From a virus, in IMG/VR virus record IMGVR_UViG_3300020469_004256, positions 5,590 to 69,589 of that record: DNA of 64,000 bases. The stretch is one strand, 5' to 3'. The notes below the pieces were generated by a model. The model ran no database searches, had not been told where the DNA came from, and saw only the letters and a program-made list of their open reading frames with translations. Of the stretch, positions 5,085 to 25,959 are shown one piece after another (within the stretch, counting starts at the first letter, position 1; every line of letters begins with the position of its first letter). Position numbers and translations under genes: made by a program.

Positions 5085-5086
5085 GC

Positions 5087-5432: not shown

Positions 5433-5474
5433 TAAAGATGCCTAAAAAATTTATTATTTTGTTGACTGTTTGCA

Positions 5475-5482
5475 TATAAATA
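5475..5482 (+). promoter_or_regulatory. T4-type late promoter TATAAATA
   Basis: Exact T4 gp55 consensus 18 nt before ORF 5501. The same NATAAATA core recurs before many transcription units. Confidence 0.7.
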
Positions 5483-5500
5483 TAGTAGTATATTGTAATA

Positions 5501-6133
5501 ATGAAGGAAAAAACAATGAGAAACCCATTTTTTTACGTGCCAGATATAGAATACGATCAGAATGAATTAAAGCAAATATTAGAAACAAAATGTAAATGGA
5601 TGGAAATGGACGGCACTGCTGACGCTCCGTTACTATCTAAAGAGGATGTTCCTGATAGTATTAGAAAGTTTTTCAACTACACAGATCCATTTGCCACATG
5701 TGGTTATGTTAAAGTAGATGTAAAGTACGATTTAGTGCCGCACGAAGATGAACAGATTTTAGCCCCTGTGTTTGAGAGCAAACACCAACTTGCTGGTTTA
5801 CCACAGTATTACGTTGATTGGTTACGCATTATTGGGTCAAGAGATTGGGGACTATCGTTTCCAGTTTCTGGAGACTTTACCAATGTTGTTACTAAAATGT
5901 ATCACAAACATAATGAAGAATACATTGATGAATTTTCTTTAAACACTGCTCCTACATTTTTTCGTACTAGAGGTGAATATTTACATGGTGTTGTTAATAC
6001 ATCAAGTGAACCAAGAATATTATTTCAATTGAGTTTTAAAGGTCATGATATGTATGAAGCATTTGTAAATAACACATATCCATCATGTGCTAGTAAAGAA
6101 GAAGTTTTAAATAGAAATAAAATTAATCAGTAA
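5501..6133 (+). CDS. Fe(II)/2OG-type double-stranded beta-helix oxygenase-like protein
   Basis: VPHED ... LHGVVN ... RILFQLSF (HxD...H...R). Confidence 0.65.
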   Translation: MKEKTMRNPFFYVPDIEYDQNELKQILETKCKWMEMDGTADAPLLSKEDVPDSIRKFFNYTDPFATCGYVKVDVKYDLVPHEDEQILAPVFESKHQLAGLPQYYVDWLRIIGSRDWGLSFPVSGDFTNVVTKMYHKHNEEYIDEFSLNTAPTFFRTRGEYLHGVVNTSSEPRILFQLSFKGHDMYEAFVNNTYPSCASKEEVLNRNKINQ

Positions 6134-6134
6134 T

Positions 6135-6800
6135 TTACACTAAATTTTCTTTTTGAAGAACGTACTGTTTGTATTTGGCTATACTTCTTTTGATTAGATT
6201 GCGATGTTCTGATTCAATTACTTTGCCTAATACAAATCCAACAATTCGATCATCATCAACAACATCTTTTACATCAACACCATGTGGCTGTGTACAGTTG
6301 TTAATTAAAAATGCATCTGTTTCTTGAGGTATAGTACAAAACCATTTTTGTTGAGTACTCATATCTTTTGTGTAATCATATTCTTTGCACATATACAATG
6401 TATCTCTCGAACCACTCACAACAAATCTATATCCAATTGGCTCATTAGCCAGTTGATGATCTAACATGTCTTGAGTTATTGTCATATGATGTCCAGGATA
6501 GGGTGACTCAACATAATTGCCATCCACATGTGGCTTTACATTACCTGTTGACCTTGCTAGTCTTACATAAAACTTATATTCAAATGGCAGGTGTTTATCA
6601 ATCCATTGTAATAGCTCAGGATATTTTTGTTTTGCCATATCATTCCAAGATTTCATTTCTCCAAAAGGTTTTGAAAAATCTTTCTTACCCATTAATGTTT
6701 CTTCATCCCAACACACAAATTTTTCTTTCCCATCAAAGTTATCTAGTATTGATTGCTTGTTTGGTATTGGTGGTATATCTAATGGTGTAAATATTGTCAT
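6135..6800 (-). CDS. Fe(II)/2OG-type oxygenase-like protein
   Basis: KPHVD ... PHGVD ... DRIVGF. Confidence 0.6.
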   Translation of the reverse strand: MTIFTPLDIPPIPNKQSILDNFDGKEKFVCWDEETLMGKKDFSKPFGEMKSWNDMAKQKYPELLQWIDKHLPFEYKFYVRLARSTGNVKPHVDGNYVESPYPGHHMTITQDMLDHQLANEPIGYRFVVSGSRDTLYMCKEYDYTKDMSTQQKWFCTIPQETDAFLINNCTQPHGVDVKDVVDDDRIVGFVLGKVIESEHRNLIKRSIAKYKQYVLQKENLV

Positions 6801-7555
6801 CTTTGTACAAATGCCTTTTCAACTACAAAATGTGCTGGTGTAGAAGTATTACCTTCTTCCATACCAAGTGATTCAAAATATTCAATTAAGTCTTTGTTCA
6901 ATCCTTGTGATCCACATATCATAAATCTATCATCCTGCGGATCTAGTGATTGGTTAATTGTTGTATGAAATAAATTATTATTTTTAATCCATTCCGTAAT
7001 TCTACCTGTGTGTTTCCAATCTTGTTGTGTTAGTGTGTTAAAGTACCTAAAGTTTCCTAGTGTTACTTCTTGCCAATCATTGTTGAAAGTTTCTAACATG
7101 TCTTTATATGCTAGTTCGTTTTCGTATTGTACTGTGTGTGTTAACACAACCTTATCAAAACGTTCATATGTTAATGGATCTTTGATAATACCCATATACG
7201 GTGCTAATCCTGTGCCAGTTGCAATTAAATACAAATTACGTCCAGGCAACAAATAGTCAATCACTAGTGTTCCGGTCGACTTGCTGTTTATTAGAACTTC
7301 GTCACCTTCTTTGATATGCTGTAGTTTAGAAGTCAAAGGTCCGTCTTCTATCTTTATAGATAAGAATTCTAAAAAGTCTTCGTGGTTAGCAGAAGCAACA
7401 GAATATGCTCTCATTAGTTTTTTGCCTTCATGCTGTAGGCCCATCATAACAAACTCACCGTTGTTAAATTTTAGTGGAAAGTTTCTTGTAGTGCGAAACG
7501 AAAACGTTTTATCGCTCCAGTGTTTCACCTGCAAGACTGTTTCTTTATTGATCAT
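6797..7555 (-). CDS. fpr: ferredoxin(flavodoxin)-NADP+ reductase, subclass I
   Basis: RAYS, GPLTSKL, TGTGLAP, MICGS and C-terminal VEKAFV. Confidence 0.95.
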   Translation of the reverse strand: MINKETVLQVKHWSDKTFSFRTTRNFPLKFNNGEFVMMGLQHEGKKLMRAYSVASANHEDFLEFLSIKIEDGPLTSKLQHIKEGDEVLINSKSTGTLVIDYLLPGRNLYLIATGTGLAPYMGIIKDPLTYERFDKVVLTHTVQYENELAYKDMLETFNNDWQEVTLGNFRYFNTLTQQDWKHTGRITEWIKNNNLFHTTINQSLDPQDDRFMICGSQGLNKDLIEYFESLGMEEGNTSTPAHFVVEKAFVQR

Positions 7556-8927
7556 TAAAATACTCCTTTAGTAGTTCCCATTCTTCAGGACAACTGTCCT
7601 TAAATTTTTGCTTTCTAATCTTATCCAAAGCATTAGTATAACGTACAAAATCTTTGATTGCAACCAAATCATCTTCTTTTTTATTTCTGTATGACAAATA
7701 TTTAATTTTATTTGTCCAATCTTTTTTAAAACCTTTTGGTAGTTGATTAATTATATCACTACTCTTATATATGTTAATTAATTTATCTTTGACTGCATTT
7801 GGTAATAATTTAATATCAAGATATTTTGGCATGGAAACATATGATGGGTGTGTTCCACTTTCATTTAAATCTGTTTCGATAGCATATTTTGCCATAAACT
7901 CAAATTGTTTTATCATACTAATAACTGTGTATGTTTGAAATGTAATACTAAAGTCTAAAGTTATTGTATCTGAATGTTTCTTAATTAACTCTAACGCATT
8001 CTCTATTACTTTCCACCTAGCAGGATATCTTACGTACTCATAACTGCTTCCATATCCGTCTAAACTGATAGACAATGCAACATTTTTAAAATGTACAAAA
8101 TAATCTTCAATCATTTCTTTTGTGATTTTTGTAGCATTTGTTATGATATGTAATTGGATTTCTTTTGATAATTTCTTGTCAATTAATCTTTTTAAAACTT
8201 TAAACAAATTAGAAATAAGCAATGGCTCACCTCCTGTAAATTTTAAAAACACTGTGTTGTCAATTACTTTTTCAAATGATTCAATAAAATTATCTTTTTC
8301 AAAGTATCTAAAATTCAAATGTTTATCTTCTGCTACTTCTAATATTCTGTTGGCATCTCCACGACTAAACTCTTCAAGTTCTGGATTGCTGATAATTTCT
8401 TTTAATATTTGTGAACTGCTCATGTAATCACACATTCTACATTTTAAATTGCAAAGGTTACCAAACTTTATATCAAAATTTATTGGAGCAGGTGATGGCG
8501 TAATAAAATTATTTTTTATTGCTTTGTTGGCTTCATTATAAATGTATGTTCTTAGTTGCTTGTCATTACGTATAGAATCTACTTTTTGAGATCTAAAAGA
8601 CGGAATTCCTATGTCATCTTTTTCCTTACATTCAATACACTCTACAGGATAAGAATTACTGCCTAGCATCTTTCTTGATTTTTTTAAGTAATTAGAATTC
8701 CACCATTCTTCTATTGAGTTATTTGATTTAGAAACTTTAATTGAGTTAGGTGGAGGCGTGGCTATACAACAAAGTTTTTGATTACCAACAGTATCAATGG
8801 TTGAATGATAATAAAGCAATGGGCAAAAGGATTTAGACTGCTCAGATAATTTATCAAAGTCTTCTGCAGAAACTTTCTTTTGCCAATTAACTTTTAATTT
8901 TTTACTAGACTTTTCTGGTGTTTCCAT
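7545..8927 (-). CDS. radical SAM protein with N-terminal Twitch-like domain
   Basis: CNLKCRMC, TGGEP, ITNA, SLDG; N-terminal CPLL..LCC..CIEC. Confidence 0.92.
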   Translation of the reverse strand: METPEKSSKKLKVNWQKKVSAEDFDKLSEQSKSFCPLLYYHSTIDTVGNQKLCCIATPPPNSIKVSKSNNSIEEWWNSNYLKKSRKMLGSNSYPVECIECKEKDDIGIPSFRSQKVDSIRNDKQLRTYIYNEANKAIKNNFITPSPAPINFDIKFGNLCNLKCRMCDYMSSSQILKEIISNPELEEFSRGDANRILEVAEDKHLNFRYFEKDNFIESFEKVIDNTVFLKFTGGEPLLISNLFKVLKRLIDKKLSKEIQLHIITNATKITKEMIEDYFVHFKNVALSISLDGYGSSYEYVRYPARWKVIENALELIKKHSDTITLDFSITFQTYTVISMIKQFEFMAKYAIETDLNESGTHPSYVSMPKYLDIKLLPNAVKDKLINIYKSSDIINQLPKGFKKDWTNKIKYLSYRNKKEDDLVAIKDFVRYTNALDKIRKQKFKDSCPEEWELLKEYFNDQ

Positions 8928-10119
8928 ACTCTACAACTGTACAACCTTCTATTTGTGGACACTGCCTCCACGGATCAATAATATATGATCCTTGTGGAAA
9001 ATTATAATTTGCTGTGTCGTCTGTTCCATAAGTTACATTTGGGTTATGGGCCAACAAGTAAACTGCTGTACCTAAATCTTTAGGTGGATGATCGCCTGTG
9101 TGTTCATCTTGATAATATAAAGTTCTACCCGCTTTTTCAATATAGTGTCCAATTAGCAAACTGTATGATCCATTAGTGTATGGTACATGAGGTTTATATG
9201 CTTTGCCTACAATTACGATTGGTAAGTTATATGACATTAGTTTTTTAGCAAGATTTTCTGCTTGTACTTCTCTTGCACCCATGATAGCATCAAACAAATC
9301 ATAACCTAAGCCTAAATGGTCTGCCATCCATCTTAAAGCAATATTATCACGTGGGTGACAAGCACCACCGTCGCCCATACCTGCTGTCATATATTTTGGT
9401 CCCATAATACGCATATCAGAAAATGCAAGTGCTGACGTTACTACATCAACGTTAATATTTCCTTGTTTCTCTGCTACGTCTTGAATCATGTTTACCAAAC
9501 CAATCTTTGCTGAAATAAATGTGTTATAAAATATTTTAATTGATTCACATTCATCCCAAGTACCAACTACATATCTTGGATTGTTTTGCATCATTGGTTT
9601 GTAAAAATCTATAAGTTCTTTTGCATCACCAGTTTTTGATCCATCTTCTGTACCAATCATAATCATTTCTGGATTTACCATATCCCATTTAACTGAACCC
9701 ATTGCAATCAAGTAAGGATTATAAACAAAACGTGCATTTGTAATCAATGGCTCAAGCTCACGTCTTGTTGTGCCAGGCAACACAGTTGATATAAGAACTA
9801 CTAATTGTTTTTTATTAACAAATTGATTAACTTCTTGTAAGATGTTTTTTACAATTGTATAATCAAAATCTTTTGGTTCTAAATGTGCTGTTGGTGTTGA
9901 CCCATCATACCGTGGATCATGTGGTGTTGGTGCCGCAATAAAAACAATGTCTTTACCTTTAACTGTTTCTTGTATAGTTGATTGCATTTTAAAGTTTTCT
10001 GGCTTTCTTGGTTCCACATCGTAGCCTTCTACCATGTATTGCTGTGCCATGACTTCAGCACAATCTTGTCCTAATTTACCGCAACCAATCATTGCAACTT
10101 TTGTATCTTTTATTTTCAT
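8905..10119 (-). CDS. UDP-glucose/GDP-mannose 6-dehydrogenase family protein
   Basis: GCGKLG Rossmann motif, STVLPGTT, KIFYN, catalytic loop GDGGACHPRD, AYKP. Confidence 0.9.
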   Translation of the reverse strand: MKIKDTKVAMIGCGKLGQDCAEVMAQQYMVEGYDVEPRKPENFKMQSTIQETVKGKDIVFIAAPTPHDPRYDGSTPTAHLEPKDFDYTIVKNILQEVNQFVNKKQLVVLISTVLPGTTRRELEPLITNARFVYNPYLIAMGSVKWDMVNPEMIMIGTEDGSKTGDAKELIDFYKPMMQNNPRYVVGTWDECESIKIFYNTFISAKIGLVNMIQDVAEKQGNINVDVVTSALAFSDMRIMGPKYMTAGMGDGGACHPRDNIALRWMADHLGLGYDLFDAIMGAREVQAENLAKKLMSYNLPIVIVGKAYKPHVPYTNGSYSLLIGHYIEKAGRTLYYQDEHTGDHPPKDLGTAVYLLAHNPNVTYGTDDTANYNFPQGSYIIDPWRQCPQIEGCTVVEYGNTRKV

Positions 10120-13301: not shown

Positions 13302-13939
13302 ACTTCAACAATTGTTTGCTCATTTACATCAACATTAACAACTAGCCAATATGCAGGATCAGGTGTTGTGTTAAAAAGATAATGCATTTTAGCAGTATCA
13401 ACAAAATATAAAATTCCTTGTTGCCATTGTAAAACTTTGTCTTCTAATATAAATGTCATGCCAGGAGTGTCACAATTTCTCAACGGCATTATTAATCTAA
13501 ATGTATCAAGATTTAATTTATTTGATTGATAAAAATCATATTCATCCGGATGATCTCTATGTGGAGGAAAAAATCCACCTGTGTTTAATTTTAAAATATG
13601 TGTTCTAAATATATGTCCTTCAAATGGTGCTAAACATTTTTTTAATGATGGCCATTCCATTACTGGTGTTGGTGTTTTAAAATCTCTTTCAGTCCATGAT
13701 GTATTATTTTCTTTGTTGTATTCATACACACTATCTAAGTCTGGAATTCCTGTCATGCATCCATCTAAACTTGTGATGCTTAATCCTTGTCTAGGATAAT
13801 CTTTTCTTGGATTATATTTTACATAGTCAAACTGTTCTTCAGTCCAATCAATAAATTCAGGAGAATCCTTCATACGAAGTGTTAAAGGATAATGTGCTCC
13901 AAATGTTATTAGGTCTCTATATAAACTGTTTTTGTTCAT
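13277..13939 (-). CDS. Asp/Asn beta-hydroxylase-like Fe/2OG oxygenase
   Basis: RTHILKLNTGGFFPPHRD ... DTAKMHYLFN. Confidence 0.8.
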   Translation of the reverse strand: MNKNSLYRDLITFGAHYPLTLRMKDSPEFIDWTEEQFDYVKYNPRKDYPRQGLSITSLDGCMTGIPDLDSVYEYNKENNTSWTERDFKTPTPVMEWPSLKKCLAPFEGHIFRTHILKLNTGGFFPPHRDHPDEYDFYQSNKLNLDTFRLIMPLRNCDTPGMTFILEDKVLQWQQGILYFVDTAKMHYLFNTTPDPAYWLVVNVDVNEQTIVEVCRYMKQR

Positions 13940-15102
13940 ACGTATGTGTTATCTCCTGGCCATAACGGCATTTGTGTTCCTGGTGCTCTTTTTGGTATTT
14001 TAGAGTCAGCACTTGATACACAACTTTTTGAAATGCATTTTTGTGGCTTGTCAAATAATTTAAACCCTGTTTCAATATTTCCAAGAGGTTGATCATGACA
14101 ACTGTAACTACGTTTTATACTGCCATCTGGTTCTCTAATAATGATTGATCTATAACCTGAAGAACATTCCCATCCTTCAAACTTGTTGAAATTAAATGCA
14201 TTGAATCTTTCTGCTTGGTCCATAAAATGTGGATTTCCATCTTTATCTCTAAACTCAACTTGAAAATGTTGTGGAACTCCTTCCGAATATGTTTGTTTCT
14301 GCATTGTTCTGTTGTCATCTATTTTAAATGTTGGTTTAGGTCTTTGTACATGTTTATTTTTTTCTTCTGTGAACCCACGTTGTGGCATTCCGTTGTGTAA
14401 TTTTTCAAGCATTTCTTTTGAGTACCCATGGACAACTTCTGACGCTGTTGGATCTGATTGAGCCTTTAGTGTAACATTAATACCTCTATTGTGAAAATAT
14501 AATGATTCATCATACAATTCATCAAACCATTCCGGAACCATAACTTGGTTAATTGTAACTTGTACATCGTGTTCTTGTGCAAAACATAACTTATCGGCAA
14601 AGTCTGCTCTTTTTTCTTTTGAGTTAACATGCTCTCTATGATATGAAGCAGTAATACTAGCTCTGTGAAACGGTGCAACTGCTTTGACATATTGTTCAAA
14701 CCATTTCATATTTCTACTGCAATTACTTGTCATATGAACAGAAGTATAATTAGTATTTTTTGTATCATCAGCGAGATGCTGTAGAATATCAATATAACCA
14801 GGATGAAATGTAGGCTCTCCGCCAGAAAGTGAGAAATGGAAACTATTAAAGCCTCGCTGTCTCGCTTGTCTTTTGATTTCATCAATGGTAGCAAGACAAA
14901 GCTCAGTAGGTCTATGATCTTTTCTGTCACTCCTAGCATACGGCCAACAGTACGAACACCTATAGTTACAAAACCTACCAAGAAGCCAACTGACTGTAAA
15001 AAGATCCCTATAAAGCATAGTACGTTGTCCCACACGTACAAGATCAGAGTACGGAATTTGTGTAAAATCATATTCACTCCATTTTAAATCACTCATTGCC
15101 AA
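13936..15102 (-). CDS. radical SAM protein with C-terminal Cys cluster
   Basis: CNYRCSYC, SGGEP, TSN; C-terminal C..SC..CISKSC. Confidence 0.92.
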   Translation of the reverse strand: MAMSDLKWSEYDFTQIPYSDLVRVGQRTMLYRDLFTVSWLLGRFCNYRCSYCWPYARSDRKDHRPTELCLATIDEIKRQARQRGFNSFHFSLSGGEPTFHPGYIDILQHLADDTKNTNYTSVHMTSNCSRNMKWFEQYVKAVAPFHRASITASYHREHVNSKEKRADFADKLCFAQEHDVQVTINQVMVPEWFDELYDESLYFHNRGINVTLKAQSDPTASEVVHGYSKEMLEKLHNGMPQRGFTEEKNKHVQRPKPTFKIDDNRTMQKQTYSEGVPQHFQVEFRDKDGNPHFMDQAERFNAFNFNKFEGWECSSGYRSIIIREPDGSIKRSYSCHDQPLGNIETGFKLFDKPQKCISKSCVSSADSKIPKRAPGTQMPLWPGDNTYV

Positions 15103-16316
15103 TAGTCCTTAAATTCTGGATACACTTCTAAAAAATTAGTTTTGTTTAATCTATCCATAGTTTCAATATATTCCTTTGTTGATTTTGGCAACACATCATT
15201 GTTTATATCAGTATTATTCATATAGTCTAATACATAGTTTGACCATTTAATTATTTTGGCCAAACGATTCTCCTTGATATTTTCTAAACTTTCTATTTTA
15301 TTATAAACTCTTTTTGTTATAATGTCTTTCATTTTCTTTGGTATATATTGAATATTTAGAGCTTCTGGATATTGTACCAAACTACAATGAAAGGGGCAAT
15401 CTAAAGATATATAATAATCAATAATATCATCAAATCTAGAAATATTGTACAACGAAACTGTACATGTTGTTGTTAAATTAAAAACTTCTTGTGGTAATTT
15501 AGATTTTAATGTTGTTATATTATCTTCAACTGCTTGTAAATTACTTCCTGTTCTTAGATAACTGTGTATTTTTTTATCACCATCTAAACTTACACGACAA
15601 TTTATCTTTTTAAATTTACTCCAAAGGTCACTGATATGCCTATCCTTCAATACTATATTGTTTAAATTTGTATTGTATTCTAATGTGATATTGTGGGCAT
15701 ATGGTAATAGTTTTTCTAATGCATCATAGTGTTGTGGCTGTATCAAAGGCTCGCCGCCTGCTATAACTATTTCTTCTACTCTTGGTCCTATGTCATTTAC
15801 TACTTGATTAAATGTTTCTATGGGTAATTTTGCTATGCCTCTCCATGTGCTGGTTTCAGTTAGTTGATATTTGTCAAACAAACGTTTAACCTCATCATGT
15901 TTGTTTACTGCTACTGCCCAAGTTGAACTGTATATTGATGAACAATGTCTGCATCTTAGATCACACACATTACCAAAACGCAATTCAATTGTTTTAACGT
16001 TCATTGGTAGTTCACCATCATTTACTTCTTTTAACACTTGAGGAATATGCTTTTCATAATCTTGATTACACTGTTGCCTAGTTGATATAACATTTGCTTT
16101 TTCCATATCCCAACAACTTTTACAACCTTCATGCTGTATTCCGTTCATCAAGTTATTGCGTATTTTTTTATAATTGTCATTATTCCATATTTCTTTGAGT
16201 GTTTTATCTCCATAGTGTCCTAACGAATCATGATTACGCCAACAAGCACTTATAAAGCCTTTTGGCTTTAGGTTCATGTGTATGAACGGCATTATACAAA
16301 AAGTCTTACTCATCAA
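15093..16316 (-). CDS. radical SAM protein with N-terminal Twitch domain
   Basis: CIMPF..ACW..CKSC; CDLRCRHC; AGGEP; NTN. Confidence 0.92.
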   Translation of the reverse strand: MMSKTFCIMPFIHMNLKPKGFISACWRNHDSLGHYGDKTLKEIWNNDNYKKIRNNLMNGIQHEGCKSCWDMEKANVISTRQQCNQDYEKHIPQVLKEVNDGELPMNVKTIELRFGNVCDLRCRHCSSIYSSTWAVAVNKHDEVKRLFDKYQLTETSTWRGIAKLPIETFNQVVNDIGPRVEEIVIAGGEPLIQPQHYDALEKLLPYAHNITLEYNTNLNNIVLKDRHISDLWSKFKKINCRVSLDGDKKIHSYLRTGSNLQAVEDNITTLKSKLPQEVFNLTTTCTVSLYNISRFDDIIDYYISLDCPFHCSLVQYPEALNIQYIPKKMKDIITKRVYNKIESLENIKENRLAKIIKWSNYVLDYMNNTDINNDVLPKSTKEYIETMDRLNKTNFLEVYPEFKDYWQ

Positions 16317-17673
16317 TTATCTCTGCTAGTTCAGGAAATACTCCACGCCAGTCCTCGTTTCTTATGCTATCAAACAGTGCTGTTTTTTCATAGAATTCCT
16401 CTGTTAGTTTGTGTGTGTGTTTATTTTGTAATGCATTTTTTCTTAAATCTTTCCATGATGTATTATTAGATTCTATGCTAGATTGTAAAACTGTAATACA
16501 TTTATCGTATACTCTGCGTACAATGAGCTTTGTCGCTTCATTTTTTAATAGTGTATGCTTGTTATAAAATGGGTCAAACTCACCTTCTAATATTTGTAAT
16601 ATTCTTAATTTTGTGTTGTTTTTTTGATTAGCCACAGCAAGGTATTTAGGTGTTGACGCAATAGTTGGTTCAAAATTAAGTTTCCGCATACCAAGTTTTT
16701 CAATTGGAAAAAATTTTATCATCCATTCTAAAAATTCTTTGATATACAATACATTGTATATTGTAATTGTATGATTTATAGACAATCGTGTATTGTTATT
16801 TTCTTGACAGTATGTTAACCATTTTTTTGCAGATGATTCAACTTTACTCCAAACAGACCTTTTTCTTAAAAATTCTGCACGTTCTTTTATTCCATCTAAA
16901 CTTAATGTGATTTTTACATTTTTAAAGTTAACAAGCAACCTACGATAACCCACCTTTGGAAAAAATGAACAATTTGTAATTACTTCAATAGTGATATTTT
17001 TAGCCAAATCCCATTTCACAAGATTAGCAAGAAATGTTTGAAACTGGTCATTTAAGAACGGTTCTCCACCAGTGACTTTTACTCTTGTTAGATTTTTGAT
17101 AGTGTCTTTAGAAATGTCACTAAGATATTGATTTGTTTTTGGTAATTGTTTAACTCTGTTATACACACGTTCGTCACCACCATAAAAATTCTCAACTGCT
17201 TTTTTATTGTTGGCTAAATCTTCATCCCAGGTTGTTGATAAACTAGGGCCGCATGATCTACATTTTAAATTACAAAATCTTCCTGTTTGTATTTCTAAAA
17301 ATTGCAAAGTAGGTTGTGTATAATCTATTTGATCTTGACTGTAATACGATAATTCACAATCGTATTGGTCAGCGTTTTCGTGGTGCTGTAATGCACCTGT
17401 TCTCATAGATTCTATTCCTTTACTTTCATCATCATAACATCTCCAACAGGCTTTGATAGTTTCACCATTGAGTGATTTTTGCCTTACAGATTTCCACATG
17501 TTATCGTATCCTTCATTAAATGTTGTAGGATACATTTGATCTCCTTCAAGTTCTTGTCTTGCTAATTTTAAGTCAAATCTACAGCAAGGAACTATTTCTA
17601 ATCTTGGCATACTGGTTACAGCACCACGAAATAGATATGGACAATAAGTTTTGTTTTTTTTCAGATCAATCAT
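16306..17673 (-). CDS. radical SAM protein with N-terminal Twitch-like domain (likely start MIDLKK)
   Basis: CPYLF..PCC..CWRC; CNLKCRSC; TGGEP. Confidence 0.92.
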   Translation of the reverse strand: MIDLKKNKTYCPYLFRGAVTSMPRLEIVPCCRFDLKLARQELEGDQMYPTTFNEGYDNMWKSVRQKSLNGETIKACWRCYDDESKGIESMRTGALQHHENADQYDCELSYYSQDQIDYTQPTLQFLEIQTGRFCNLKCRSCGPSLSTTWDEDLANNKKAVENFYGGDERVYNRVKQLPKTNQYLSDISKDTIKNLTRVKVTGGEPFLNDQFQTFLANLVKWDLAKNITIEVITNCSFFPKVGYRRLLVNFKNVKITLSLDGIKERAEFLRKRSVWSKVESSAKKWLTYCQENNNTRLSINHTITIYNVLYIKEFLEWMIKFFPIEKLGMRKLNFEPTIASTPKYLAVANQKNNTKLRILQILEGEFDPFYNKHTLLKNEATKLIVRRVYDKCITVLQSSIESNNTSWKDLRKNALQNKHTHKLTEEFYEKTALFDSIRNEDWRGVFPELAEIIDE

Positions 17674-17786
17674 TATGTGTAGTATACAATAAAATTTTAA
17701 TAAAATCAATATAAACTGTGTATTTTATATTATTTATCTGTTGTTCTAATCAATAAATAGTAGTATAATAATGCTTTACAAGGATT

Positions 17787-18119
17787 ATGTATATGCCAAA
17801 CAAATGGTTATTTAAAACAGAAATAAAACATTCAAACATACACGGACAAGGAAGATTTGCATTAGAAAGCATTCCAATTGGTCGACAAGTTGTTGAACTC
17901 AAAGGTGCTATTGTTCCTAAAGAAGAAGCACCTGGAAAATTTCCAATAAGTCTTACTCATAACATGAATTGTGATGACAGTTATGTAAACCACAGTCAAG
18001 AACCTAATCTTGCATACGTTGGTGGAACTAGTTTTGTTTCTTGTGAAAAAATAAAAAAAGGTGACGAGTTAACTATGGACTATAGCCAATTTGCAGGCGA
18101 TCGTAAATTTTTATTTTAG
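17787..18119 (+). CDS. minimal SET-domain protein (putative lysine methyltransferase)
   Basis: SNIHGQGRFA, YVNHSQEPN, GDELTMDY. Confidence 0.88.
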   Translation: MYMPNKWLFKTEIKHSNIHGQGRFALESIPIGRQVVELKGAIVPKEEAPGKFPISLTHNMNCDDSYVNHSQEPNLAYVGGTSFVSCEKIKKGDELTMDYSQFAGDRKFLF

Positions 18120-18805
18120 TGTTTAAATCTTTTCTTCCATTCCATATTGGCAAAAGGCCAGCCAGTTATAACAACGCGACAACCTGATTTACCATCACGA
18201 ACCGGGTTAACATAATGAGCTGATCCTACTCTCATTAGTACACATGAATTTCTTTTTGGTCTTACTGCTAAAGGTCCTGCTAGGTAAGGTTCTTGATTTG
18301 ATTCTTTAACCATTTTTTCTTTAAACTGTTCCCAGTTACTTCTTTCAGTTGGATATGATTGAAAATGATCTTCTAACATGTATTCATTTGGCAATACCAA
18401 TTCGCCACCTTCTTCGTTTGTTAGATAGTTTATAAACACAAAATCTCCATATATGTCTTTGCGTTCTGTGTGTACATGATATACACTTTTTGGATTAAAT
18501 GTCTTTGTGCTAAACTGTAGTACATTCTTTTCATTTATGTCTTCTAATAATATTGGTTTGTGAACTTCTGATAGTACTTCATTTAGTTTATTAATTACTG
18601 CTACCACCACTGGTTTATCTTTGTGTATGTTATATTTTACATGATTGTAATTGTAATATGATTTACTAATAATATGTGGCTGTTCATTACCATCAAGCTC
18701 TTTGGTTTCAGATTGGCGTATATGCTCTAGTGTTTGATCCACTAGGCCTTCATCTATAAAGTTATCTGTATACCAAACTTCGTTAGTAATTAGTTCTTGC
18801 CACAT
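18116..18805 (-). CDS. 2OG-Fe(II) oxygenase (prolyl-hydroxylase-like)
   Basis: HVHTE, YL..EEGGEL, PKRN, AHYV, RVVITGW. Confidence 0.8.
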   Translation of the reverse strand: MWQELITNEVWYTDNFIDEGLVDQTLEHIRQSETKELDGNEQPHIISKSYYNYNHVKYNIHKDKPVVVAVINKLNEVLSEVHKPILLEDINEKNVLQFSTKTFNPKSVYHVHTERKDIYGDFVFINYLTNEEGGELVLPNEYMLEDHFQSYPTERSNWEQFKEKMVKESNQEPYLAGPLAVRPKRNSCVLMRVGSAHYVNPVRDGKSGCRVVITGWPFANMEWKKRFKH

Positions 18806-20586
18806 TATCTTTCATTTCCTATTGCTATTCTATCTGTTGGTTTAATACGTGCATCAGTTCCATACATACTCATATCAAATTCTTTTTTCCATTGTGCTAC
18901 ATCGTATTTAACCAAATCGTGTGGAAATACTTTTGACAGATCTTCTATAAATTGATTTTGATTATGCCAAAACTGATATATTTCATCCGATCTTAAACAT
19001 CTTGAAAAATACAAATAAGTTGCTAGATCTTTGACTTCTGTTCTTGGTTCATCTTTAAATATGTTTTTAATTATTTGTCTATTCTTTTCTACTAATTTTG
19101 TCATTAAAGGCATTTGATCTAAATGTTTATAAAACCATTTGGCTTGAAATTGTATATCATGCTGTGTATCATATAAGGTTTTCATTGTATGACTTAATGC
19201 TCTTGAATTATGAAAGTTATGATAAAACCACCAGTAGTCAAACATACGAACTATCTCATCCTCGTCATATGAAAAACATCTATGCATTATTTCTATTTCT
19301 TCAAACTCATATGTGCTACGTTCATCTCTATACTCTGGATGTTGATGCAACTGTTTGTATCCTAGTCCTGAAAATGAATAAGGAAATGCAAGTATCTTTG
19401 ATTTAACTTTGTATTCTTTTTGAAACTTTTCTGTGTATAGCTCTGTATTAGGCACAAGATTTAAAAAATATGAACGCATGAAATCAATGCCAAGCTCATA
19501 GTCTTTATCTAATGAGTACAACCAACTGTCTGCTGTTTCGCCAGGCAAAGCAATAATCATTTCTGATGTTACTGGTAATCCTTTTGATTTAAAACTATCA
19601 ATCAAAGGTAATAGTTTGTCATTATTGATATTTGCTCTATTAATAACTTTTAACGTTTCTTTTGCGTGTGTTTGAAAACTTACTTTAAGGTTACGTTGAT
19701 CAGCATCTAAATTGTTGTGTATGATATCAATAATCTCTGGCAACCATTTACTACCATTCTTTGCAAGTCCTGAATATGATATCTTAGGATTGTTGCCTGT
19801 TGCTTCTTTGTTTGCTTTCATTTTTTTAACAACATCTAAATCTCTTGGTAGCATACCAAAGTTAGCATCAAGTATTTCTACTTCTGCTATGTTGGTATGT
19901 TTATATATAAAGTCTAACTGTTCATTTACAGGATTCATATCAAACTTTGTAACTTTTGATCTTGCTTGTCCACCCCAGTCACAAAAAGCACATTTAAAAG
20001 GACAACCACGATTGGTTTCAAATGATGCTTTGACTCTTTTTTCTTCAGCAAGTATGGAATCAAATACTCCATCTAAGTATGGTGTAGGCATTTCATGAGT
20101 TTCAATTTGATACAGTTTACGTCCTACTTCTACATTATTCCAACCTCTGCCAAAACTACCATCGTGTACACTCATAGGAGCATCAATATTTTGTAAGAAG
20201 TTGCTGACTAATTTCTCACCTGGGCCTACCCAAAATATATCTATGTAAGGATGTTCACGAGCAAACTTTTCTGCAAGTTTAGGGTCTTCAGGCACATTAG
20301 GTCCACCATACATGGTGATACCATTTGGATTAACATCTTTATAATGACTCATCATCTGATCATTGTATGCTTGATTCCAAACATAACAAGTAAGACCAAA
20401 TACATCTATGTTTTTAAATTTTTCTGTGTATTCTTCTACAGGTTTATATTTGTACAAAGGTTCATTAAACTTATATTGTGATTTAATTGCTGGTATCTTG
20501 TTACAGTAACTTATAAGGCATGCCGCCGCATATGGTAACCATGTTTCGTGTATGACTGATATTGTTCCTAATTGTACAGTTTTCAT
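18805..20586 (-). CDS. cobalamin-binding radical SAM enzyme (class B methyltransferase-like)
   Basis: N-terminal B12-binding Rossmann domain (GLTCYVWN, YGGPN, GPGE); ETNRGCPFKCAFCDWG, DANFG, ALPGET. Confidence 0.92.
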   Translation of the reverse strand: MKTVQLGTISVIHETWLPYAAACLISYCNKIPAIKSQYKFNEPLYKYKPVEEYTEKFKNIDVFGLTCYVWNQAYNDQMMSHYKDVNPNGITMYGGPNVPEDPKLAEKFAREHPYIDIFWVGPGEKLVSNFLQNIDAPMSVHDGSFGRGWNNVEVGRKLYQIETHEMPTPYLDGVFDSILAEEKRVKASFETNRGCPFKCAFCDWGGQARSKVTKFDMNPVNEQLDFIYKHTNIAEVEILDANFGMLPRDLDVVKKMKANKEATGNNPKISYSGLAKNGSKWLPEIIDIIHNNLDADQRNLKVSFQTHAKETLKVINRANINNDKLLPLIDSFKSKGLPVTSEMIIALPGETADSWLYSLDKDYELGIDFMRSYFLNLVPNTELYTEKFQKEYKVKSKILAFPYSFSGLGYKQLHQHPEYRDERSTYEFEEIEIMHRCFSYDEDEIVRMFDYWWFYHNFHNSRALSHTMKTLYDTQHDIQFQAKWFYKHLDQMPLMTKLVEKNRQIIKNIFKDEPRTEVKDLATYLYFSRCLRSDEIYQFWHNQNQFIEDLSKVFPHDLVKYDVAQWKKEFDMSMYGTDARIKPTDRIAIGNER

Positions 20587-21185
20587 AATACATCTTCCAC
20601 ATTATCTATAGTACCGTCATGCTTGTGCCATATCACTGCTTGAGTTGGTTTCCATACATAATCTAGATCAATGTAATAACTGTAAACAAATTGTATCATA
20701 TCAGACTTTGGCGAGTCATGAAAAACCAATTCAGTTTCAAGTTTCATTTTCTTATAGTCTTCATCTTCAAACCAACTGTTGTCTCCACCTATGTATTTTC
20801 TTTTGTGCTGATATAATTTGTTTAATGCTTTGTCTTTAACATCATGTGTTATGTAATAATGTTTAAACCCTTGTTCTCTTGCCCATGCCATTTGCTGTTT
20901 CATCATTTTAAATCCATAGCGACCATGTCTGTGTTTTTTGAGAATATGATATCTGCATATCCTAATTGACTCTGGTGTGCCTGTGATAAAACTTCTTTCA
21001 GCATAACTAACACTTGCAACTTCTCCGTCAACAACTGCTAACCATAAACTACTTTTAGGATCTAAGTCATCAACATTAAACTTGTTTTTATCATATGTGC
21101 CAGCACTTTCTTCTTTGATAGCCTGAGCTATAAACTCTTGAACCAATACTTTGTATGCTGGTGTGTACTGTACAATCTTTTCCAT
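20583..21185 (-). CDS. GNAT-family acyltransferase-like protein
   Basis: RYHILKKHRHGRYG acyl-CoA loop; WAREQGFK. Confidence 0.7.
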   Translation of the reverse strand: MEKIVQYTPAYKVLVQEFIAQAIKEESAGTYDKNKFNVDDLDPKSSLWLAVVDGEVASVSYAERSFITGTPESIRICRYHILKKHRHGRYGFKMMKQQMAWAREQGFKHYYITHDVKDKALNKLYQHKRKYIGGDNSWFEDEDYKKMKLETELVFHDSPKSDMIQFVYSYYIDLDYVWKPTQAVIWHKHDGTIDNVEDVL

Positions 21186-23042
21186 TTAGAATTTTAATTT
21201 CCATCCTAGTGTTATGTTTCTACCACCTTGATTATAACCGTCTGGTCGTTCATATTGATCATCTGTTAAGTTTTTTACATTTAGTGTGATTTCAGAATCT
21301 TGCGTTAAGTAATAACCTGCTGTAAGATCTGCTGTGGTTCTTTCCTTAACAGTAATAGTTGACCAATTGACTGAGTCAGTATCTCTGTGATCGCCATAAT
21401 ATAATATACTAGGTGATATATAATAGTTATCTTTAGCATAAGTTACACCAGATTTCCAAGTAGTATGAGGTCTACGTTTTAGCCAAGTACCTGATGAGTC
21501 TTGTGCTGATGTTAGTGCTACGTTATTTACAAAACTAAAATTACCAACATAGTAAGTAAAGTCAATATCTGCACCTTTCATATTAGATGTTCCAGTACTG
21601 TCATTATTGTACGTTGAATTAGAGTATGTAATCATGTCTTTTATATCTGTTGAATAAAATGCAATGTCAAATTTATGTGATTTACTGTTATTACTATAAC
21701 CAATTTCTTTACTTACTGACGTTTCTGGTTTAAGATTTACGTTACCTGTGTAACCATAGTTGTCTGCACCATATAGTTCATATAGTGTTGGTGACTTGTA
21801 TCCTGTTGATTGACTTATACGAAAACCATTGTATGCCGCTCCAACTGAATATGTTGATTGTCCATTAGCAATAGAATGTTCGTCATGCCTTAATCCACCT
21901 GATAGTATAAAATTGTTACTTATTGAATAATCAAAGTTATGATATACTCCAACAACTGATGCTGACTTATCAACAGTTGAATTGTAACTACCAGTGTTGT
22001 TAAAATCTACATCAAATTCAGTTACATCTACACCTGTTTTAGTTGATGCTTGATCTGTATTTGTTAACCAATCTAATGATCCGTGTGTGGCAACAGAGTC
22101 ATAGTTGTCTATTTCTGTGCCGTTTACGTATTGTCTATCCCAAACGGTATGATCAATAACTGTTTTTATTTTGCCATACTCAACATCAGTTATTGTTTGT
22201 ACTTGCCCAAAATAAAACTTTGTTTCATTAGTGTAATCCAAATCATCTGCACCTGAGGCATCAATGTCTGCATTGGTTGTATTTGTTACACCTGTAAATT
22301 TTATTTGTGTATCATCTAAGTTTACCACATGTCCAACATTAAATCCTAGTACATCATACCCATCTGGCTCAGTACCTTGTGGGTACACGGATATACCATC
22401 TGAATTTTCTGTGTATATACCAAAAGTAAAAAAGTCTTTACCATATGTGTATGACATTGTGTTTGTATTGTTTGATCCTTTGGCTATTGATATTTCATTT
22501 TGTTTATAGTCTGATGTTTGTATATCAACAACCCCTCCTACTGCGTTTGCACCATAGTTGGTACTCATTGGACCTGTATACAAGTGTAGCCCATCTGCAA
22601 AGTGTATGTTGATATTGTTTAAATCTGTAGCACCATTTGTGGTTGAATAATCTGTTATTGCTGATCCATTAATTGTTACCAGTGTGTGATTTGAGTTTGT
22701 TCCTCTTGTAAACAATGATGTTTGTTGTCCTGCTGGGCCTGATCTAACTGCATTAAAATTTGGTGCATCTTCTAATGCTTCTGATAATATTGCAGATCCT
22801 TCTTTCTTTTCATCGTCTAACCAAATGTATTCATTTGTGTATATTTGATCTGCTTTTTGTGATGTTGTCATAGTATGAAAAACCGGAATAGTGATCACCA
22901 ATGAATCACATACTATTGTTTCGTCTTTCATTTCTTCCCAATAGCACTCTTGTGCTTTGGCGGATTTAATTAAAAATGCCACAAGTACAATAACAAGAAT
23001 TATTATACCTGTACCGATATTTCTTTTTTGTTCACTGTTCAT
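21186..23042 (-). CDS. TonB-dependent outer-membrane receptor, BtuB-like
   Basis: Signal peptide ending AKA; plug motifs SLFTRGTNSNHTLVTING and YGANAVGGVV; LKPETS; NLTD..Y; terminal Phe; adjacent to btuM-like gene. Confidence 0.9.
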   Translation of the reverse strand: MNSEQKRNIGTGIIILVIVLVAFLIKSAKAQECYWEEMKDETIVCDSLVITIPVFHTMTTSQKADQIYTNEYIWLDDEKKEGSAILSEALEDAPNFNAVRSGPAGQQTSLFTRGTNSNHTLVTINGSAITDYSTTNGATDLNNINIHFADGLHLYTGPMSTNYGANAVGGVVDIQTSDYKQNEISIAKGSNNTNTMSYTYGKDFFTFGIYTENSDGISVYPQGTEPDGYDVLGFNVGHVVNLDDTQIKFTGVTNTTNADIDASGADDLDYTNETKFYFGQVQTITDVEYGKIKTVIDHTVWDRQYVNGTEIDNYDSVATHGSLDWLTNTDQASTKTGVDVTEFDVDFNNTGSYNSTVDKSASVVGVYHNFDYSISNNFILSGGLRHDEHSIANGQSTYSVGAAYNGFRISQSTGYKSPTLYELYGADNYGYTGNVNLKPETSVSKEIGYSNNSKSHKFDIAFYSTDIKDMITYSNSTYNNDSTGTSNMKGADIDFTYYVGNFSFVNNVALTSAQDSSGTWLKRRPHTTWKSGVTYAKDNYYISPSILYYGDHRDTDSVNWSTITVKERTTADLTAGYYLTQDSEITLNVKNLTDDQYERPDGYNQGGRNITLGWKLKF

Positions 23043-23568
23043 GAATGCCTTTCCTATTAACTACTATTAAGTAGATGTTGTGTAAAGGTCGAGACAATGC
23101 TACAGTCAATGATGCCATCAAGGCAGTATAAACAACTGTGCCTAACAGTGTATTTTGGAAAAATGGTATTGCCATTGTGTAACACATTATCAATCCTTCT
23201 AATGTGTTAGGATAGTAGTCCCACATAATCCATACTGCAAAATTTGTTACTATGAAAAACAATACTGATGATATCAGCGTCATTGTTGCTAAAGGCAAGT
23301 ACTTTCCAAACTGCATAGCCCATCTGCTGATAACTGTGGACATTGCTATTGATCCATAAACCCAAAGCATATAAGGATGAAACCCTATAAACACATCTCC
23401 AATAAACATTGCCATTAATGGTACTGCTATTGCTATCCAACGATCGTTAACGATGTATGGTGCAAATATAGCCGCGGCCAATATTGGTGTAAAGTTTGGT
23501 GGATGTGGTATGAGTCTACCTATGGCAAGAATGCCAGAAATATATAAAAATGATAGTATAATCTTCAT
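23032..23568 (-). CDS. btuM: BtuM-like (DUF6580) cobalamin transporter, solitary ECF S-component
   Basis: RLIPHPPNFTP, FFIVTNFAVW, CYTMAIPFF; about 6 TM segments. Confidence 0.8.
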   Translation of the reverse strand: MKIILSFLYISGILAIGRLIPHPPNFTPILAAAIFAPYIVNDRWIAIAVPLMAMFIGDVFIGFHPYMLWVYGSIAMSTVISRWAMQFGKYLPLATMTLISSVLFFIVTNFAVWIMWDYYPNTLEGLIMCYTMAIPFFQNTLLGTVVYTALMASLTVALSRPLHNIYLIVVNRKGIHEQ

Positions 23569-23647
23569 AATAGTATTACCCCAACCTCTATTGTTAAATA
23601 CGGTAAATTGTAATACTATTTATAACATACTTTCCAAAATGTGTCAA
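23569..23647 (-). promoter_or_regulatory. TTGACA-17-TATAAA promoter overlapping late TATAAATA, plus an 11-bp inverted repeat abutting the btuM start codon
   Basis: TTGACA 23647-23642; TATAAATA 23624-23617; arms 23610-23620 and 23569-23579. Confidence 0.7.
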
Positions 23648-23657: not shown

Positions 23658-24395
23658 TTATTTTACAGTTTCAAGTGTTGCTATATCTTCTTGCGTTGGA
23701 AGTGAAAACATTAATGCTATTCTGTCTTCTGTGCCTCTGTGTTCAACAGAGTGTTTTAGGCCAACATTTAAGAAATATGCAGATCCATCTGATGGCATTT
23801 GATATTCTTCTTCAACACCTCTGCGCCATACTTTATTGTACACACCTTCTGTTCCTTGGATAGGAACAATAACTCTTACTGCATAATCAGGAGCATAATC
23901 AATATGTGGTGTAAGATATTTGCCTGCTCTGATTCTTGAAAGTCTAACTCTAATTGGTGTTGAATTAAATTGTTCTTCAATTGCTTCTTTTACATAAGAA
24001 TCTTGATAAATTGGAAGTGGATGATACCAATTGTGTTCGTTCATTGGTGCTGGTAATCCTTCCATTCTACGAATTTTTGTTCTGTATTTTTGTGTTTTTG
24101 ATTTACCTAACGATTCACTGTTTGCTGTAATTTTGCATTCTTTTCTTAATTCTGTTAAATCTAATACATCATTTAATGAATTTTCGTAATATGTTAAATT
24201 AATTTGATCAAAGTGATGATAGTTGTCTGATGCTAAATCTTCATGTACTGCACACAAACCTCTATTGGCCTGATAAACATTTACCCATTCTTCATTTAAA
24301 CGTGTTACTTCCTGTCTAAGTTTTTCAATGTCAAACTTAATTCCAGGAATTGGTGCTACACTCGGTAGTTGATATTTTGTTCTTGTTTGTATCAT
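23658..24395 (-). CDS. Asp/Asn beta-hydroxylase-like Fe/2OG oxygenase
   Basis: RVRLSRI..GKYLTPHID ... LKHSVEH...DRIALMF. Confidence 0.8.
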   Translation of the reverse strand: MIQTRTKYQLPSVAPIPGIKFDIEKLRQEVTRLNEEWVNVYQANRGLCAVHEDLASDNYHHFDQINLTYYENSLNDVLDLTELRKECKITANSESLGKSKTQKYRTKIRRMEGLPAPMNEHNWYHPLPIYQDSYVKEAIEEQFNSTPIRVRLSRIRAGKYLTPHIDYAPDYAVRVIVPIQGTEGVYNKVWRRGVEEEYQMPSDGSAYFLNVGLKHSVEHRGTEDRIALMFSLPTQEDIATLETVK

Positions 24396-24443: not shown

Positions 24444-25160
24444 TCACTTTTTTAATAAAGGAACAACATATTTTCCGCCTACATCCCAAGGGCCTAGTAC
24501 CAATCTACTCACATCATCATGATGATTGTCATGATATCCTTCACCCCACATAATCATATTACTAACAAAATCAATTGTTGTTGGCTCAGCTTCTTTGCCA
24601 TTGTGTCCAAAATAATTTAAGTATGTTAAGAAAAACCATGCGTGAGTAAAATTAAATGCCATCCATACAACTAACCAAGGATTGATCAAAGCATGAAGTA
24701 TTACTGCTCCTGTGTATAGTTTCCAGTAATGTTTGGTTGTGAACACTGCATCTCGTTGTCTTAAAAATTTTCTCATTGGAATAGCACCACTTGGAGTTCT
24801 GTATCTGCCCAACAACATACGCCACCATCCCAGATCTTTTGGAGAGTGTGTGTCTAATTCTGTGTCAGTATACTTGTGATGATTTAAGTGTGCAACAACA
24901 TTATGTCCTGGTGGACCAACTGCACTTATTACTGTTGATGCTAATAATATTTTTCTGCCAACCCAACTTGGCTCAAACTGGTAATGACATAGCCACCTAT
25001 GGTAACATATCTGAGCAAGATTGTTTGTGATGTGTCCTGCTATTGTAAAAATTAATGCAAGTTCCCATGAACCTCCCATAATAAAATATGCTGGAATACC
25101 AATTACTGCAACGATAAACATCACAACAATTTTTAATGTTACCCAATCAATATACTTCAT
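24444..25160 (-). CDS. membrane fatty-acid desaturase (divergent delta-9 type)
   Basis: His boxes HRWLCH, HLNHH, GEGYHDNHH; DTHSP. Confidence 0.9.
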   Translation of the reverse strand: MKYIDWVTLKIVVMFIVAVIGIPAYFIMGGSWELALIFTIAGHITNNLAQICYHRWLCHYQFEPSWVGRKILLASTVISAVGPPGHNVVAHLNHHKYTDTELDTHSPKDLGWWRMLLGRYRTPSGAIPMRKFLRQRDAVFTTKHYWKLYTGAVILHALINPWLVVWMAFNFTHAWFFLTYLNYFGHNGKEAEPTTIDFVSNMIMWGEGYHDNHHDDVSRLVLGPWDVGGKYVVPLLKK

Positions 25161-25164: not shown

Positions 25165-25959
25165 CTAATCTTTCAACATTGATGCTTTGATTGGTCTTGA
25201 CATTTTAAGTTTTTTTGGTTCAAGTTCTAACAATTTAATAAACCAACCGCCTACATCAAACTCCCACCATTTGTGTTTGAAACTAGGATTTTTAGGATTG
25301 GCATGGTGGTTGTTATGCCATCCTTCACCCCACATTAATATACCAAGTGCTGGAATATTTCTTGAGTTATCAGTTGTTTCAAAGTTTCGATATCCAAACA
25401 TATGAGTCAATGTGTTAATAAAAGATCCTGCGTTCCATAAAACCATTGCAGGAAATAGATAGGCCGCTACTAACAACATTGGATCAATCCATAACCATAT
25501 GCCTGCTATAGTACCATGGATTAAAAAATACCATCTATGAGCAAACGCATGAAAATTATCTCTAATCAAATGCAAAGCATATTTTGGACTAGGTGTTTCA
25601 AACATACTCAACCATTGTACTTTTAAAAATCCTTTGTAGTTTGGCGAGTGTGGATCATCTTCTTTATCTGTATGCACATGATGTTCTCGGTGTATTGCTA
25701 CCCAACCAATTGTTGATCCTGTTAGTCCATACATTCCTGCCATTGAACCAAAGTAATGAAACCATTTAGGTGCATTCCAACTCCTGTGTGATAAAAGCCT
25801 ATGGAAAGTCATAGTCATTCCAAAACATCCTGTAATGAAATATACAAAGAATCCTATTAGCCAATGATACCAATGTCCATACACAATCATTGGAATTATG
25901 CTTAGATGTGCTATAACTTGGCTAAAAAATAATGCCCATTTAAAATAATTTTGTTTCAT
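25165..25959 (-). CDS. membrane fatty-acid desaturase (DesC/OLE1-like delta-9)
   Basis: HRLLSH, HREHH, DDPHSP, GEGWHNNHH, WWEFD. Confidence 0.95.
   Translation of the reverse strand: MKQNYFKWALFFSQVIAHLSIIPMIVYGHWYHWLIGFFVYFITGCFGMTMTFHRLLSHRSWNAPKWFHYFGSMAGMYGLTGSTIGWVAIHREHHVHTDKEDDPHSPNYKGFLKVQWLSMFETPSPKYALHLIRDNFHAFAHRWYFLIHGTIAGIWLWIDPMLLVAAYLFPAMVLWNAGSFINTLTHMFGYRNFETTDNSRNIPALGILMWGEGWHNNHHANPKNPSFKHKWWEFDVGGWFIKLLELEPKKLKMSRPIKASMLKD

Follow-up and report, generated by a model that had tools for sequence, protein, structure and literature searches.

Introduction

Phage auxiliary genes boost the uptake of phosphate and other nutrients, and class B radical S-adenosylmethionine (SAM) methylases use cobalamin as a methyl carrier. 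In this study, we describe a five-gene phage cassette in which a predicted uptake pair for vitamin B12 stands directly upstream of an enzyme of that type. The cassette lies in the window, by which we mean the whole 64-kb stretch analysed here (positions 5,590 to 69,589 of IMG/VR record IMGVR_UViG_3300020469_004256, a linear contig of 69.6 kb with a CheckV completeness of 19%). The window is part of an uncultured marine jumbo myovirus of about 330 kb. The first-pass annotation of this DNA proposed that the phage imports the cofactor for its own enzyme, and added that no characterised phage system of this kind was known. None is described in the literature that we searched, which likewise holds no description of a phage B12 uptake system. 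Of the proposal itself, the phage origin, the pair of BtuB-like and BtuM-fold proteins, the linkage of such pairs to riboswitches and the type of the enzyme stand, whereas a coupling beyond the window's lineage and the suggested product do not.

Several described systems resemble parts of the cassette. According to Rempel et al. 2018 (PMC6072759), BtuM of Thiobacillus denitrificans is a solitary S-component-like B12 transporter that is encoded beside btuB and acts without an energy-coupling factor (ECF) module, and its Cys80 ligand is required for cobalamin binding. The main text of a pelagimyophage survey (PMC7029224) places radical SAM cassettes in a hypervariable island and reports no riboswitches in its phages; that text contains no mention of TonB, B12 or cobalamin, and the supplementary tables may list transporters. 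A preprint of October 2026 (10.64898/2026.10.24.761521) catalogues the outer-membrane beta-barrels of huge phages, a TonB-dependent receptor among them, and its main text mentions neither B12, BtuB and cobalamin nor radical SAM. In the main text of a paper on the pelagimyophage PstS protein (PMC12379486), B12 and BtuB do not occur and the word cobalamin appears once, in a passage on a SAR86 riboswitch. Like pelagimyophage PstS and the huge-phage barrels, the cassette holds phage copies of host nutrient-acquisition or envelope genes. Unlike them, it is predicted to cover both membranes for a single vitamin, it has a riboswitch in some of its phage copies, and it is linked to a phage enzyme for which the cofactor is required. 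It is these features that are new here, phage auxiliary uptake genes as such being known.

Results

The five minus-strand open reading frames (ORFs) of the cassette were confirmed and are closely packed. The DUF6580 and receptor genes overlap by 11 nt, the receptor and GNAT genes abut (0 nt), and the last two junctions are overlaps of 4 and 1 nt. The features, in the direction of transcription, are as follows.

23647..23617, minus strand: promoter-like element, TTGACA (23647..23642), a 17-nt spacer and TATAAATA (23624..23617)
23568..23032, minus strand: DUF6580 membrane protein, 178 aa; PF20221, 151.7 bits (cut-off 27), E 2.8e-44
23042..21186, minus strand: BtuB-like TonB-dependent receptor, 618 aa; PF07715, 54.8 bits, and PF00593, 94.1 bits
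21185..20583, minus strand: GNAT-fold acyltransferase, 200 aa; PF00583, 30.9 bits (cut-off 20.7), E 3.6e-07
20586..18805, minus strand: radical SAM C-methyltransferase homologue, 593 aa; PF04055, 41.7 bits
18805..18116, minus strand: 2-oxoglutarate (2OG)-Fe(II) oxygenase superfamily protein, 229 aa; PF13640, 30.8 bits (cut-off 27), E 6e-07

The GNAT and 2OG oxygenase identities that had been proposed for two of these proteins hold, both matches lying above their family cut-offs. The promoter-like element sits in the 89-nt gap between the preceding gene and the DUF6580 gene, and its TATAAATA part fits a -10 hexamer and also the T4-type late-promoter word. The leader that follows contains an 11-bp perfect inverted repeat (23569..23624, minus strand) that is conserved in relatives; the 5' arm of the repeat shares positions with TATAAATA, whereas the ATG of the DUF6580 gene marks the end of the 3' arm. 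Element and leader are nearly invariant up to the ATG in five related phage contigs even though the upstream gene differs between the window and its relatives, and by this conservation the segment is a putative regulatory region that travels with the DUF6580 gene. A generic promoter scan returned 86 sites against 75.6 +/- 10.5 in shuffled sequences, which is not above chance, and did not list the cassette element. Thus, of the claim that one promoter precedes five overlapping or abutting genes, the gene arrangement is borne out by the ORFs and the promoter by the conservation of its leader, but not by its consensus, which does not rise above chance. A scan of the region called no terminator-like site between the five genes; the one minus-strand site within their span, at 18199..18175, falls inside the 3' end of the 2OG gene. 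RNA libraries of two or three studies contain contigs that match parts of the DUF6580 gene and the 5' end of the receptor gene without a mismatch; in X18-X20, parts of the region are uncovered. These contigs give a weak hint of expression, and carry-over of DNA is possible.

The receptor has the predicted features of a vitamin B12 receptor. Its best NCBIfam family is TIGR01779 (TonB-B12, E 7.5e-55), with the E. coli BtuB model NF007926 in second place, and its best solved structure is BtuB (PDB 1nqf, E 1.5e-24). A profile of 19 receptor relatives matched BtuB in the PDB over its full length at E 5.9e-59 (203 bits), about 90 bits above every other receptor there, the next being Cir (5.7e-31, plug only) and FepA (2.6e-24). 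On these scores the protein groups with BtuB and not with the siderophore receptors, in keeping with its earlier naming as a BtuB-like TonB receptor, BtuB being its best-matching family and not an equivalog assignment. At the N-terminus, a signal peptide precedes a cysteine pair and a TonB-box-like strand, the latter aligning with its equivalent in BtuB-like proteins of gammaproteobacteria, and plug and barrel follow. Like E. coli BtuB (PDB 1NQE-1NQH, 2GSK), the phage receptor thus combines a TonB-box-like strand after the signal peptide with a plug and a 22-strand-type barrel in a protein of BtuB size, and it has homologues under cobalamin riboswitches. Unlike E. coli BtuB, it is phage-encoded, scores far below the equivalog cut-offs, has no riboswitch in its window copy, carries the extra cysteine pair and is partnered by DUF6580 instead of BtuCDF. 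The cysteine pair lies within residues 31-55, between the signal peptide and the TonB-box-like strand, and is common to the phage and SAR11 receptors and not to the other bacterial BtuB-like proteins in the alignment.

The DUF6580 protein was modelled with AlphaFold2 with seven helices at a pLDDT of 82.3 (the predicted score of the local distance difference test). The best Foldseek match of the model was BtuM (probability 0.98, E 0.26, TM 0.57). In VIA comparisons it superposed best on BtuM (8ovv, Z 15.4, root-mean-square deviation 2.6 A over 155 residues; 8c7p, Z 15.2), and the ECF S-components followed at Z 14.0 (RibU) down to 10.2. Searched against PDB sequences, the protein itself matched no chain at E <= 1, and a 20-sequence profile of the family matched none at E <= 10, although BtuM entries were present in the bank. 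The first-pass annotation had called this protein a BtuM-like transporter; since no sequence match to those BtuM chains appeared, the likeness is one of predicted fold and gene context only, and the protein is not a member of the BtuM family. Within the family, an R-x-x-P-H-P-P-N motif (R18, H22), D58, N109 and W113 are invariant. No cysteine is invariant among the 20 sequences, that of a C-Y-x-M-A-I-P-F-F segment occurring in most of them and not in all. Like T. denitrificans BtuM (8OVV, 8C7P), DUF6580 is a small solitary membrane protein with a predicted ECF S-component fold whose gene lies next to a btuB-like gene; unlike it, DUF6580 shows no detectable sequence kinship with BtuM and has, among the 20 sequences, no invariant cysteine to compare with the Cys80 ligand. 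The model makes DUF6580 a candidate inner-membrane corrinoid carrier. The term DUF6580 is absent from the literature searched, the DUF6580, radical SAM and 2OG proteins are all without a PHROGs family, and DUF6580 has no match at E <= 1e-5 in 50,697 GenBank phage records. Its best bacterial tblastn match is a Zixibacteria locus (47%).

The predicted specificity of the pair for B12 derives from the context in which its relatives occur. When 185,579 species genomes were scanned with the receptor profile, the best bacterial relatives were loci of the Pelagibacteraceae (SAR11). SAR11 is generally regarded as independent of B12, and the receptor was present in 31 of 401 sampled Pelagibacteraceae genomes. 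At 18 of 19 Pelagibacteraceae loci the DUF6580 gene directly follows the receptor gene, and the nineteenth locus ends at the receptor (the SAR11 operon loci examined were L007-L045 and L165-L169). Just upstream of the receptor, 10 of 12 and 13 of 15 bacterial loci (23 of 27 together) have a cobalamin-class riboswitch; it is of the AdoCbl-II class (RF01689) at 20 of 24 Pelagibacteraceae loci and of the RF00174 class at all three Zixibacteria loci. In four SAR11 loci, class B radical SAM genes encoding 650-709 aa flank the receptor-DUF6580 pair.

The same arrangement exists among viruses. A profile scan of IMG/VR yielded 69 viral DUF6580 loci, 27 of which have an adjacent BtuB-like receptor gene. 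An AdoCbl-II riboswitch lies directly upstream of the DUF6580 gene in six of nine scanned viral pairs (72-93 bits), and none of nine scanned loci with DUF6580 alone has a cobalamin riboswitch.

L104, L107, L110, L113, L114 and L119 (IMG/VR), about 100-200 nt before the DUF6580 start: phage-borne AdoCbl-II riboswitches

In receptor trees, the viral rows and unnamed metagenome rows join SAR11 to the exclusion of the other bacterial BtuB-like proteins (FastTree, 227 rows, support 100; IQ-TREE with a posterior mean site frequency mixture model, 46 rows, Shimodaira-Hasegawa-like approximate likelihood ratio test [SH-aLRT] 100; long branches flagged). The direction of transfer between SAR11 and phages was considered; we claim no donor, and the branching inside the joint clade is unresolved. 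From the company that the two genes keep, we regard it as probable, and with good confidence, that receptor and DUF6580 form a corrinoid uptake pair.

The 593-aa product of the fourth gene aligns with TokK (PDB 7kdx, E 6.5e-50, residues 15-394 against TokK 21-402) and CysS (9n1b, E 2.3e-33), and it matches the KedN5 family NF033712 at E 2.2e-47 with 161.6 bits, under the cut-off of 700. The cysteines C195, C199 and C202 of its CxxxCxxC motif are invariant in alignment A3. The match to the B12-binding domain PF02310 is sub-threshold (16.7 against 32.1); we nevertheless accept an N-terminal cobalamin domain because the TokK alignment spans it. By homology to TokK across the cobalamin and radical SAM domains, the protein is a cobalamin-dependent (class B) radical SAM methylase homologue, which agrees with its initial description as a B12-dependent radical SAM enzyme. 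Like enzymes of the TokK, ThnK, CysS and KedN5 type, it has a predicted N-terminal cobalamin domain, a radical SAM barrel and the CxxxCxxC motif. Unlike them, it is phage-encoded, about 200 C-terminal residues are unmatched, its score falls under the subfamily cut-off, and no carrier-protein or antibiotic-pathway genes lie near it. It has no match at E <= 1e-8 in the GenBank phage records. In the complete related record G006, PF02310 missed the TokK-like gene, and we therefore used a profile of the phage enzyme to detect class-B-like genes; neither a PF02310 match nor any other recognisable B12 enzyme was found in G006 by a search whose domain model had missed that gene as well. Ribonucleotide reductase was considered as a B12 client and rejected. 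Its ORFs of about 790 aa reach about 190 bits against a TIGR02504 cut-off of 400, and since this match is sub-threshold and an NrdB gene is adjacent, we assign it to class I.

Uptake pair and enzyme stay together in the window's lineage. Co-occurrence in relatives, which had been singled out as a test of the proposed operon, was found in a synteny survey, the cassette recurring in G006 and three contigs. Gene order in the four close relatives is DUF6580, receptor, (desaturase, SDR), GNAT, radical SAM and 2OG, with desaturase homologues (PF00487) between receptor and GNAT in L002-L004 and G006. The relatives also have an extra 2OG paralogue (34% identity) between the 2OG and radical SAM genes. 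A second lineage is represented by G007, an unrelated and complete T4-like phage of 170.8 kb (polymerase 33% identical). It carries a different B12-binding radical SAM gene (PF02310, 45.7 bits) on the same strand as a DUF6580 gene and 1.5 kb upstream of it, and no receptor gene is present there.

L092 (G007) 4770..9974, all on one strand: B12-binding radical SAM gene, two small ORFs, DUF6580, TctA-family transporter

Discussion

These results suggest the following course of events. During infection, a conserved promoter of its own would drive the phage receptor and the DUF6580 carrier, and the two proteins would carry a corrinoid, vitamin B12 or a close analogue, over both host membranes, with the receptor presumably energised by host TonB. 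In the window's lineage the pair would have lost the cobalamin riboswitch that controls the SAR11 copies and other phage copies, and it has come to be placed directly upstream of a phage gene for a putative cobalamin-dependent radical SAM methylase of the TokK/CysS type. With the pair so placed, the imported cofactor would most likely be handed to that enzyme. That the phage imports a corrinoid through receptor and DUF6580, most likely to load its own methylase, is the reading that we prefer, with moderate confidence.

The link of carrier and enzyme is favoured by a class-B-like radical SAM gene in 10 of 25 DUF6580-bearing viral records, and in five of the six that are at least 90% complete (counts that stand without a background rate from comparable uncultured phages lacking DUF6580), and by the lack of a match to either gene in the GenBank phage records. 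A number of observations weigh against this reading. In G014, the 242-kb record that holds L114, a copy of the enzyme with 84% identity lies about 45 kb from the uptake pair, and DUF6580 is missing from four fragments that carry a relative of the enzyme. Of the 69 viral DUF6580 loci, 42 lack a receptor within 8 kb, and only seven have a class-B-like radical SAM gene within that distance (62 have none). The receptor scores below the BtuB equivalog cut-offs (TIGR01779, 186.6 against 599.7; NF007926, 133 against 836) and shares only 26-32% identity with the SAR11 proteins, and the DUF6580 family is uncharacterised. The window and its closest relatives have the conserved promoter in place of a cobalamin riboswitch. 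Finally, neither the window's record nor five related viral records nor five receptor-bearing Pelagibacteraceae genomes yielded a TonB C-terminal domain; this negative is weak because the control of the search was positive in only 3 of 14 genomes, which shows it to be insensitive.

The uptake pair and the enzyme cluster are, by these counts, separable modules. Since they separate in some relatives, the description of an operon coupled to the enzyme holds for the window's lineage, where four relatives keep the order, and fails as a general statement, given the 45 kb between the two in G014 and the fragments with the enzyme alone. That the pair is coupled to the radical SAM enzyme is plausible without being obligatory, and we put the chance that the uptake pair serves the phage methylase only a little above even.

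The competing account that survives best is one of general provisioning, in which the pair imports B12 for host metabolism that aids the phage and its adjacency to the radical SAM gene is an accident of the hypervariable island. The island is indeed a mosaic in which gene order varies between relatives, and 22 of the 27 viral DUF6580-receptor pairs lack a class-B-like radical SAM gene within 8 kb. An accident fits poorly with adjacency in four relatives and again in another phage lineage, where the enzyme is a different one, or with the class-B-like enzyme in five of the six near-complete records. The riboswitch, kept in six of the nine scanned viral pairs, would suit provisioning as it suits a host housekeeping operon; in the window's lineage it has been replaced by the phage promoter that travels with the pair. 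We judge provisioning of the host alone unlikely.

A second possibility is that the pair imports something other than cobalamin, such as another tetrapyrrole, cobinamide or a different vitamin, the window version having diverged from the riboswitch-controlled ones. There are S-component folds for many different vitamins, and the window's receptor clade, which lacks the riboswitch and falls below the BtuB equivalog cut-offs, is 34-39% identical to the riboswitch-bearing viral copies. Set against this, receptor and carrier fall within the clade of riboswitch-controlled viral and SAR11 proteins (SH-aLRT 100), and the adjoining enzyme is of a cobalamin-dependent type. A non-cobalamin substrate thus seems to us quite improbable. 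We attach a still smaller chance to remodelling of the cell surface, in which the phage receptor would mask or replace a host receptor, block superinfection or act as a decoy without any part in transport. The failure to find TonB in the viral and Pelagibacteraceae records searched would be expected of such a protein; its retained plug and TonB-box-like strand, its linked inner-membrane DUF6580 partner (27 of 69 viral and 18 of 19 SAR11 loci) and the cobalamin riboswitches before viral copies would all be left unexplained.

For practical purposes we exclude an origin of the cassette as bacterial DNA attached to phage sequence, by a chimera in the assembly or by contamination from the host, even though its nearest cellular relatives are bacterial uptake operons: the contig is collinear with an independent, complete and terminally repeated phage genome that has the same cassette, as do three contigs from other samples. 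The first-pass annotation had named such a chimera as a danger to its proposal. The complete genome, G006, is a viral record of 328,149 bp with direct terminal repeats and a CheckV completeness of 100%, and it holds the cassette at the corresponding place. Fifty of the 60 window ORFs of at least 100 aa, the five cassette genes among them, match G006 at 27.7-96.6 kb in collinear, inverted order. Base composition is uniform over the cassette junctions. In 17 sequencing runs from several studies, including 7 with the label of a viral metagenome, at least half of the sampled words are present, and one virome run reaches 28 of the region's 30 bins. The cassette is flanked, on the window's right side, by genes for a DNA polymerase, a tail fibre and other phage families (PHROGs). 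The polymerase is 83% identical to its homologue in G006, and its nearest relatives beyond that are those of Sinorhizobium phage Phosso (51%), Agrobacterium phage Atu_ph07 (46%) and the GAP32 group (42%). Since these are jumbo phages, we rejected an identity as a pelagimyophage of the Kyanoviridae type. The only DNA match of the window in GenBank phages is a 143-nt stretch of the GNAT gene of Pelagibacter phage Mosig.

If our preferred reading of corrinoid import for a phage methylase is right, the cassette would represent a new form of host take-over, the provisioning of a cofactor for viral chemistry, and viruses would join the marine B12 economy. The analysis supplies a testable function for DUF6580, a family linked to btuB and to cobalamin riboswitches in SAR11, and the roughly 21 radical SAM genes per genome in the lineage point to an unexplored viral biosynthesis. 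A more far-reaching version can be drawn, in which the phage installs a self-sufficient corrinoid route of receptor and DUF6580, perhaps powered by the ExbB/ExbD-like pair of the complete relative G006, in a host otherwise unable to take up B12, and does so solely to activate one methylase among some 21 radical SAM enzymes, building a phage-specific modified molecule. On this version DUF6580 would be a new and widespread family of importers for vitamin B12 whose understanding began with phages. We regard it as doubtful.

The suggestion that GNAT, methylase and oxygenase together make one methylated, acylated and hydroxylated product is unsupported, and we dropped it. The GNAT protein has no informative sequence relatives in the PDB and the 2OG protein has no PDB sequence relative; the AlphaFold2 model of the GNAT (pLDDT 75.7) has only generic structural matches (473 at E <= 0.001), and the protein is 39% identical to the GNAT of phage Mosig. 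A speculative lipid-remodelling reading, prompted by the desaturases, an AspH/LpxO-like hydroxylase and the GNAT, was also considered.

Other features of the phage genome

G006 and G014 encode a MotA/ExbB-family protein of 187 aa followed by a 235-aa protein with a single ExbD/TolR-like transmembrane helix that bears an aspartate. The gene run to which they belong is not present in the window's 69.6-kb record. One may speculate that it is a phage-borne energiser of the receptor or a second uptake route.

L170 (G006:276000-288000) 2761..8443 and L171 (G014) 4745..5960: HSP20, DnaK, MotA/ExbB-like protein, 235-aa ExbD/TolR-like protein, 188-aa membrane protein, ClpS, SbmA/BacA-like transporter

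The genes next to the cassette in the window include three that lie in or beside it in relatives and one on the opposite strand.

24395..23658, minus strand: AspH-like hydroxylase (PF05118), within or beside the cassette in relatives
25160..24444 and 25959..25165, minus strand: two fatty-acid-desaturase-family proteins, in or beside the cassette in relatives
17787..18119, plus strand: SET-domain protein (PF00856, E 4e-08), abutting the 2OG gene on the opposite strand and conserved in G006

Radical SAM genes are abundant in the lineage, with 21 PF04055 matches each in G006 and G014, and the window has at least six radical SAM matches, in stretches that include 1411..3778 and 13936..20586. The window also contains a glutamine riboswitch (RF01739) at 46588..46635 on the minus strand, which scores 50.2 bits against a gathering threshold of 35; glutamine riboswitches are reported for Melnitz-like marine phages (PMC9004378).

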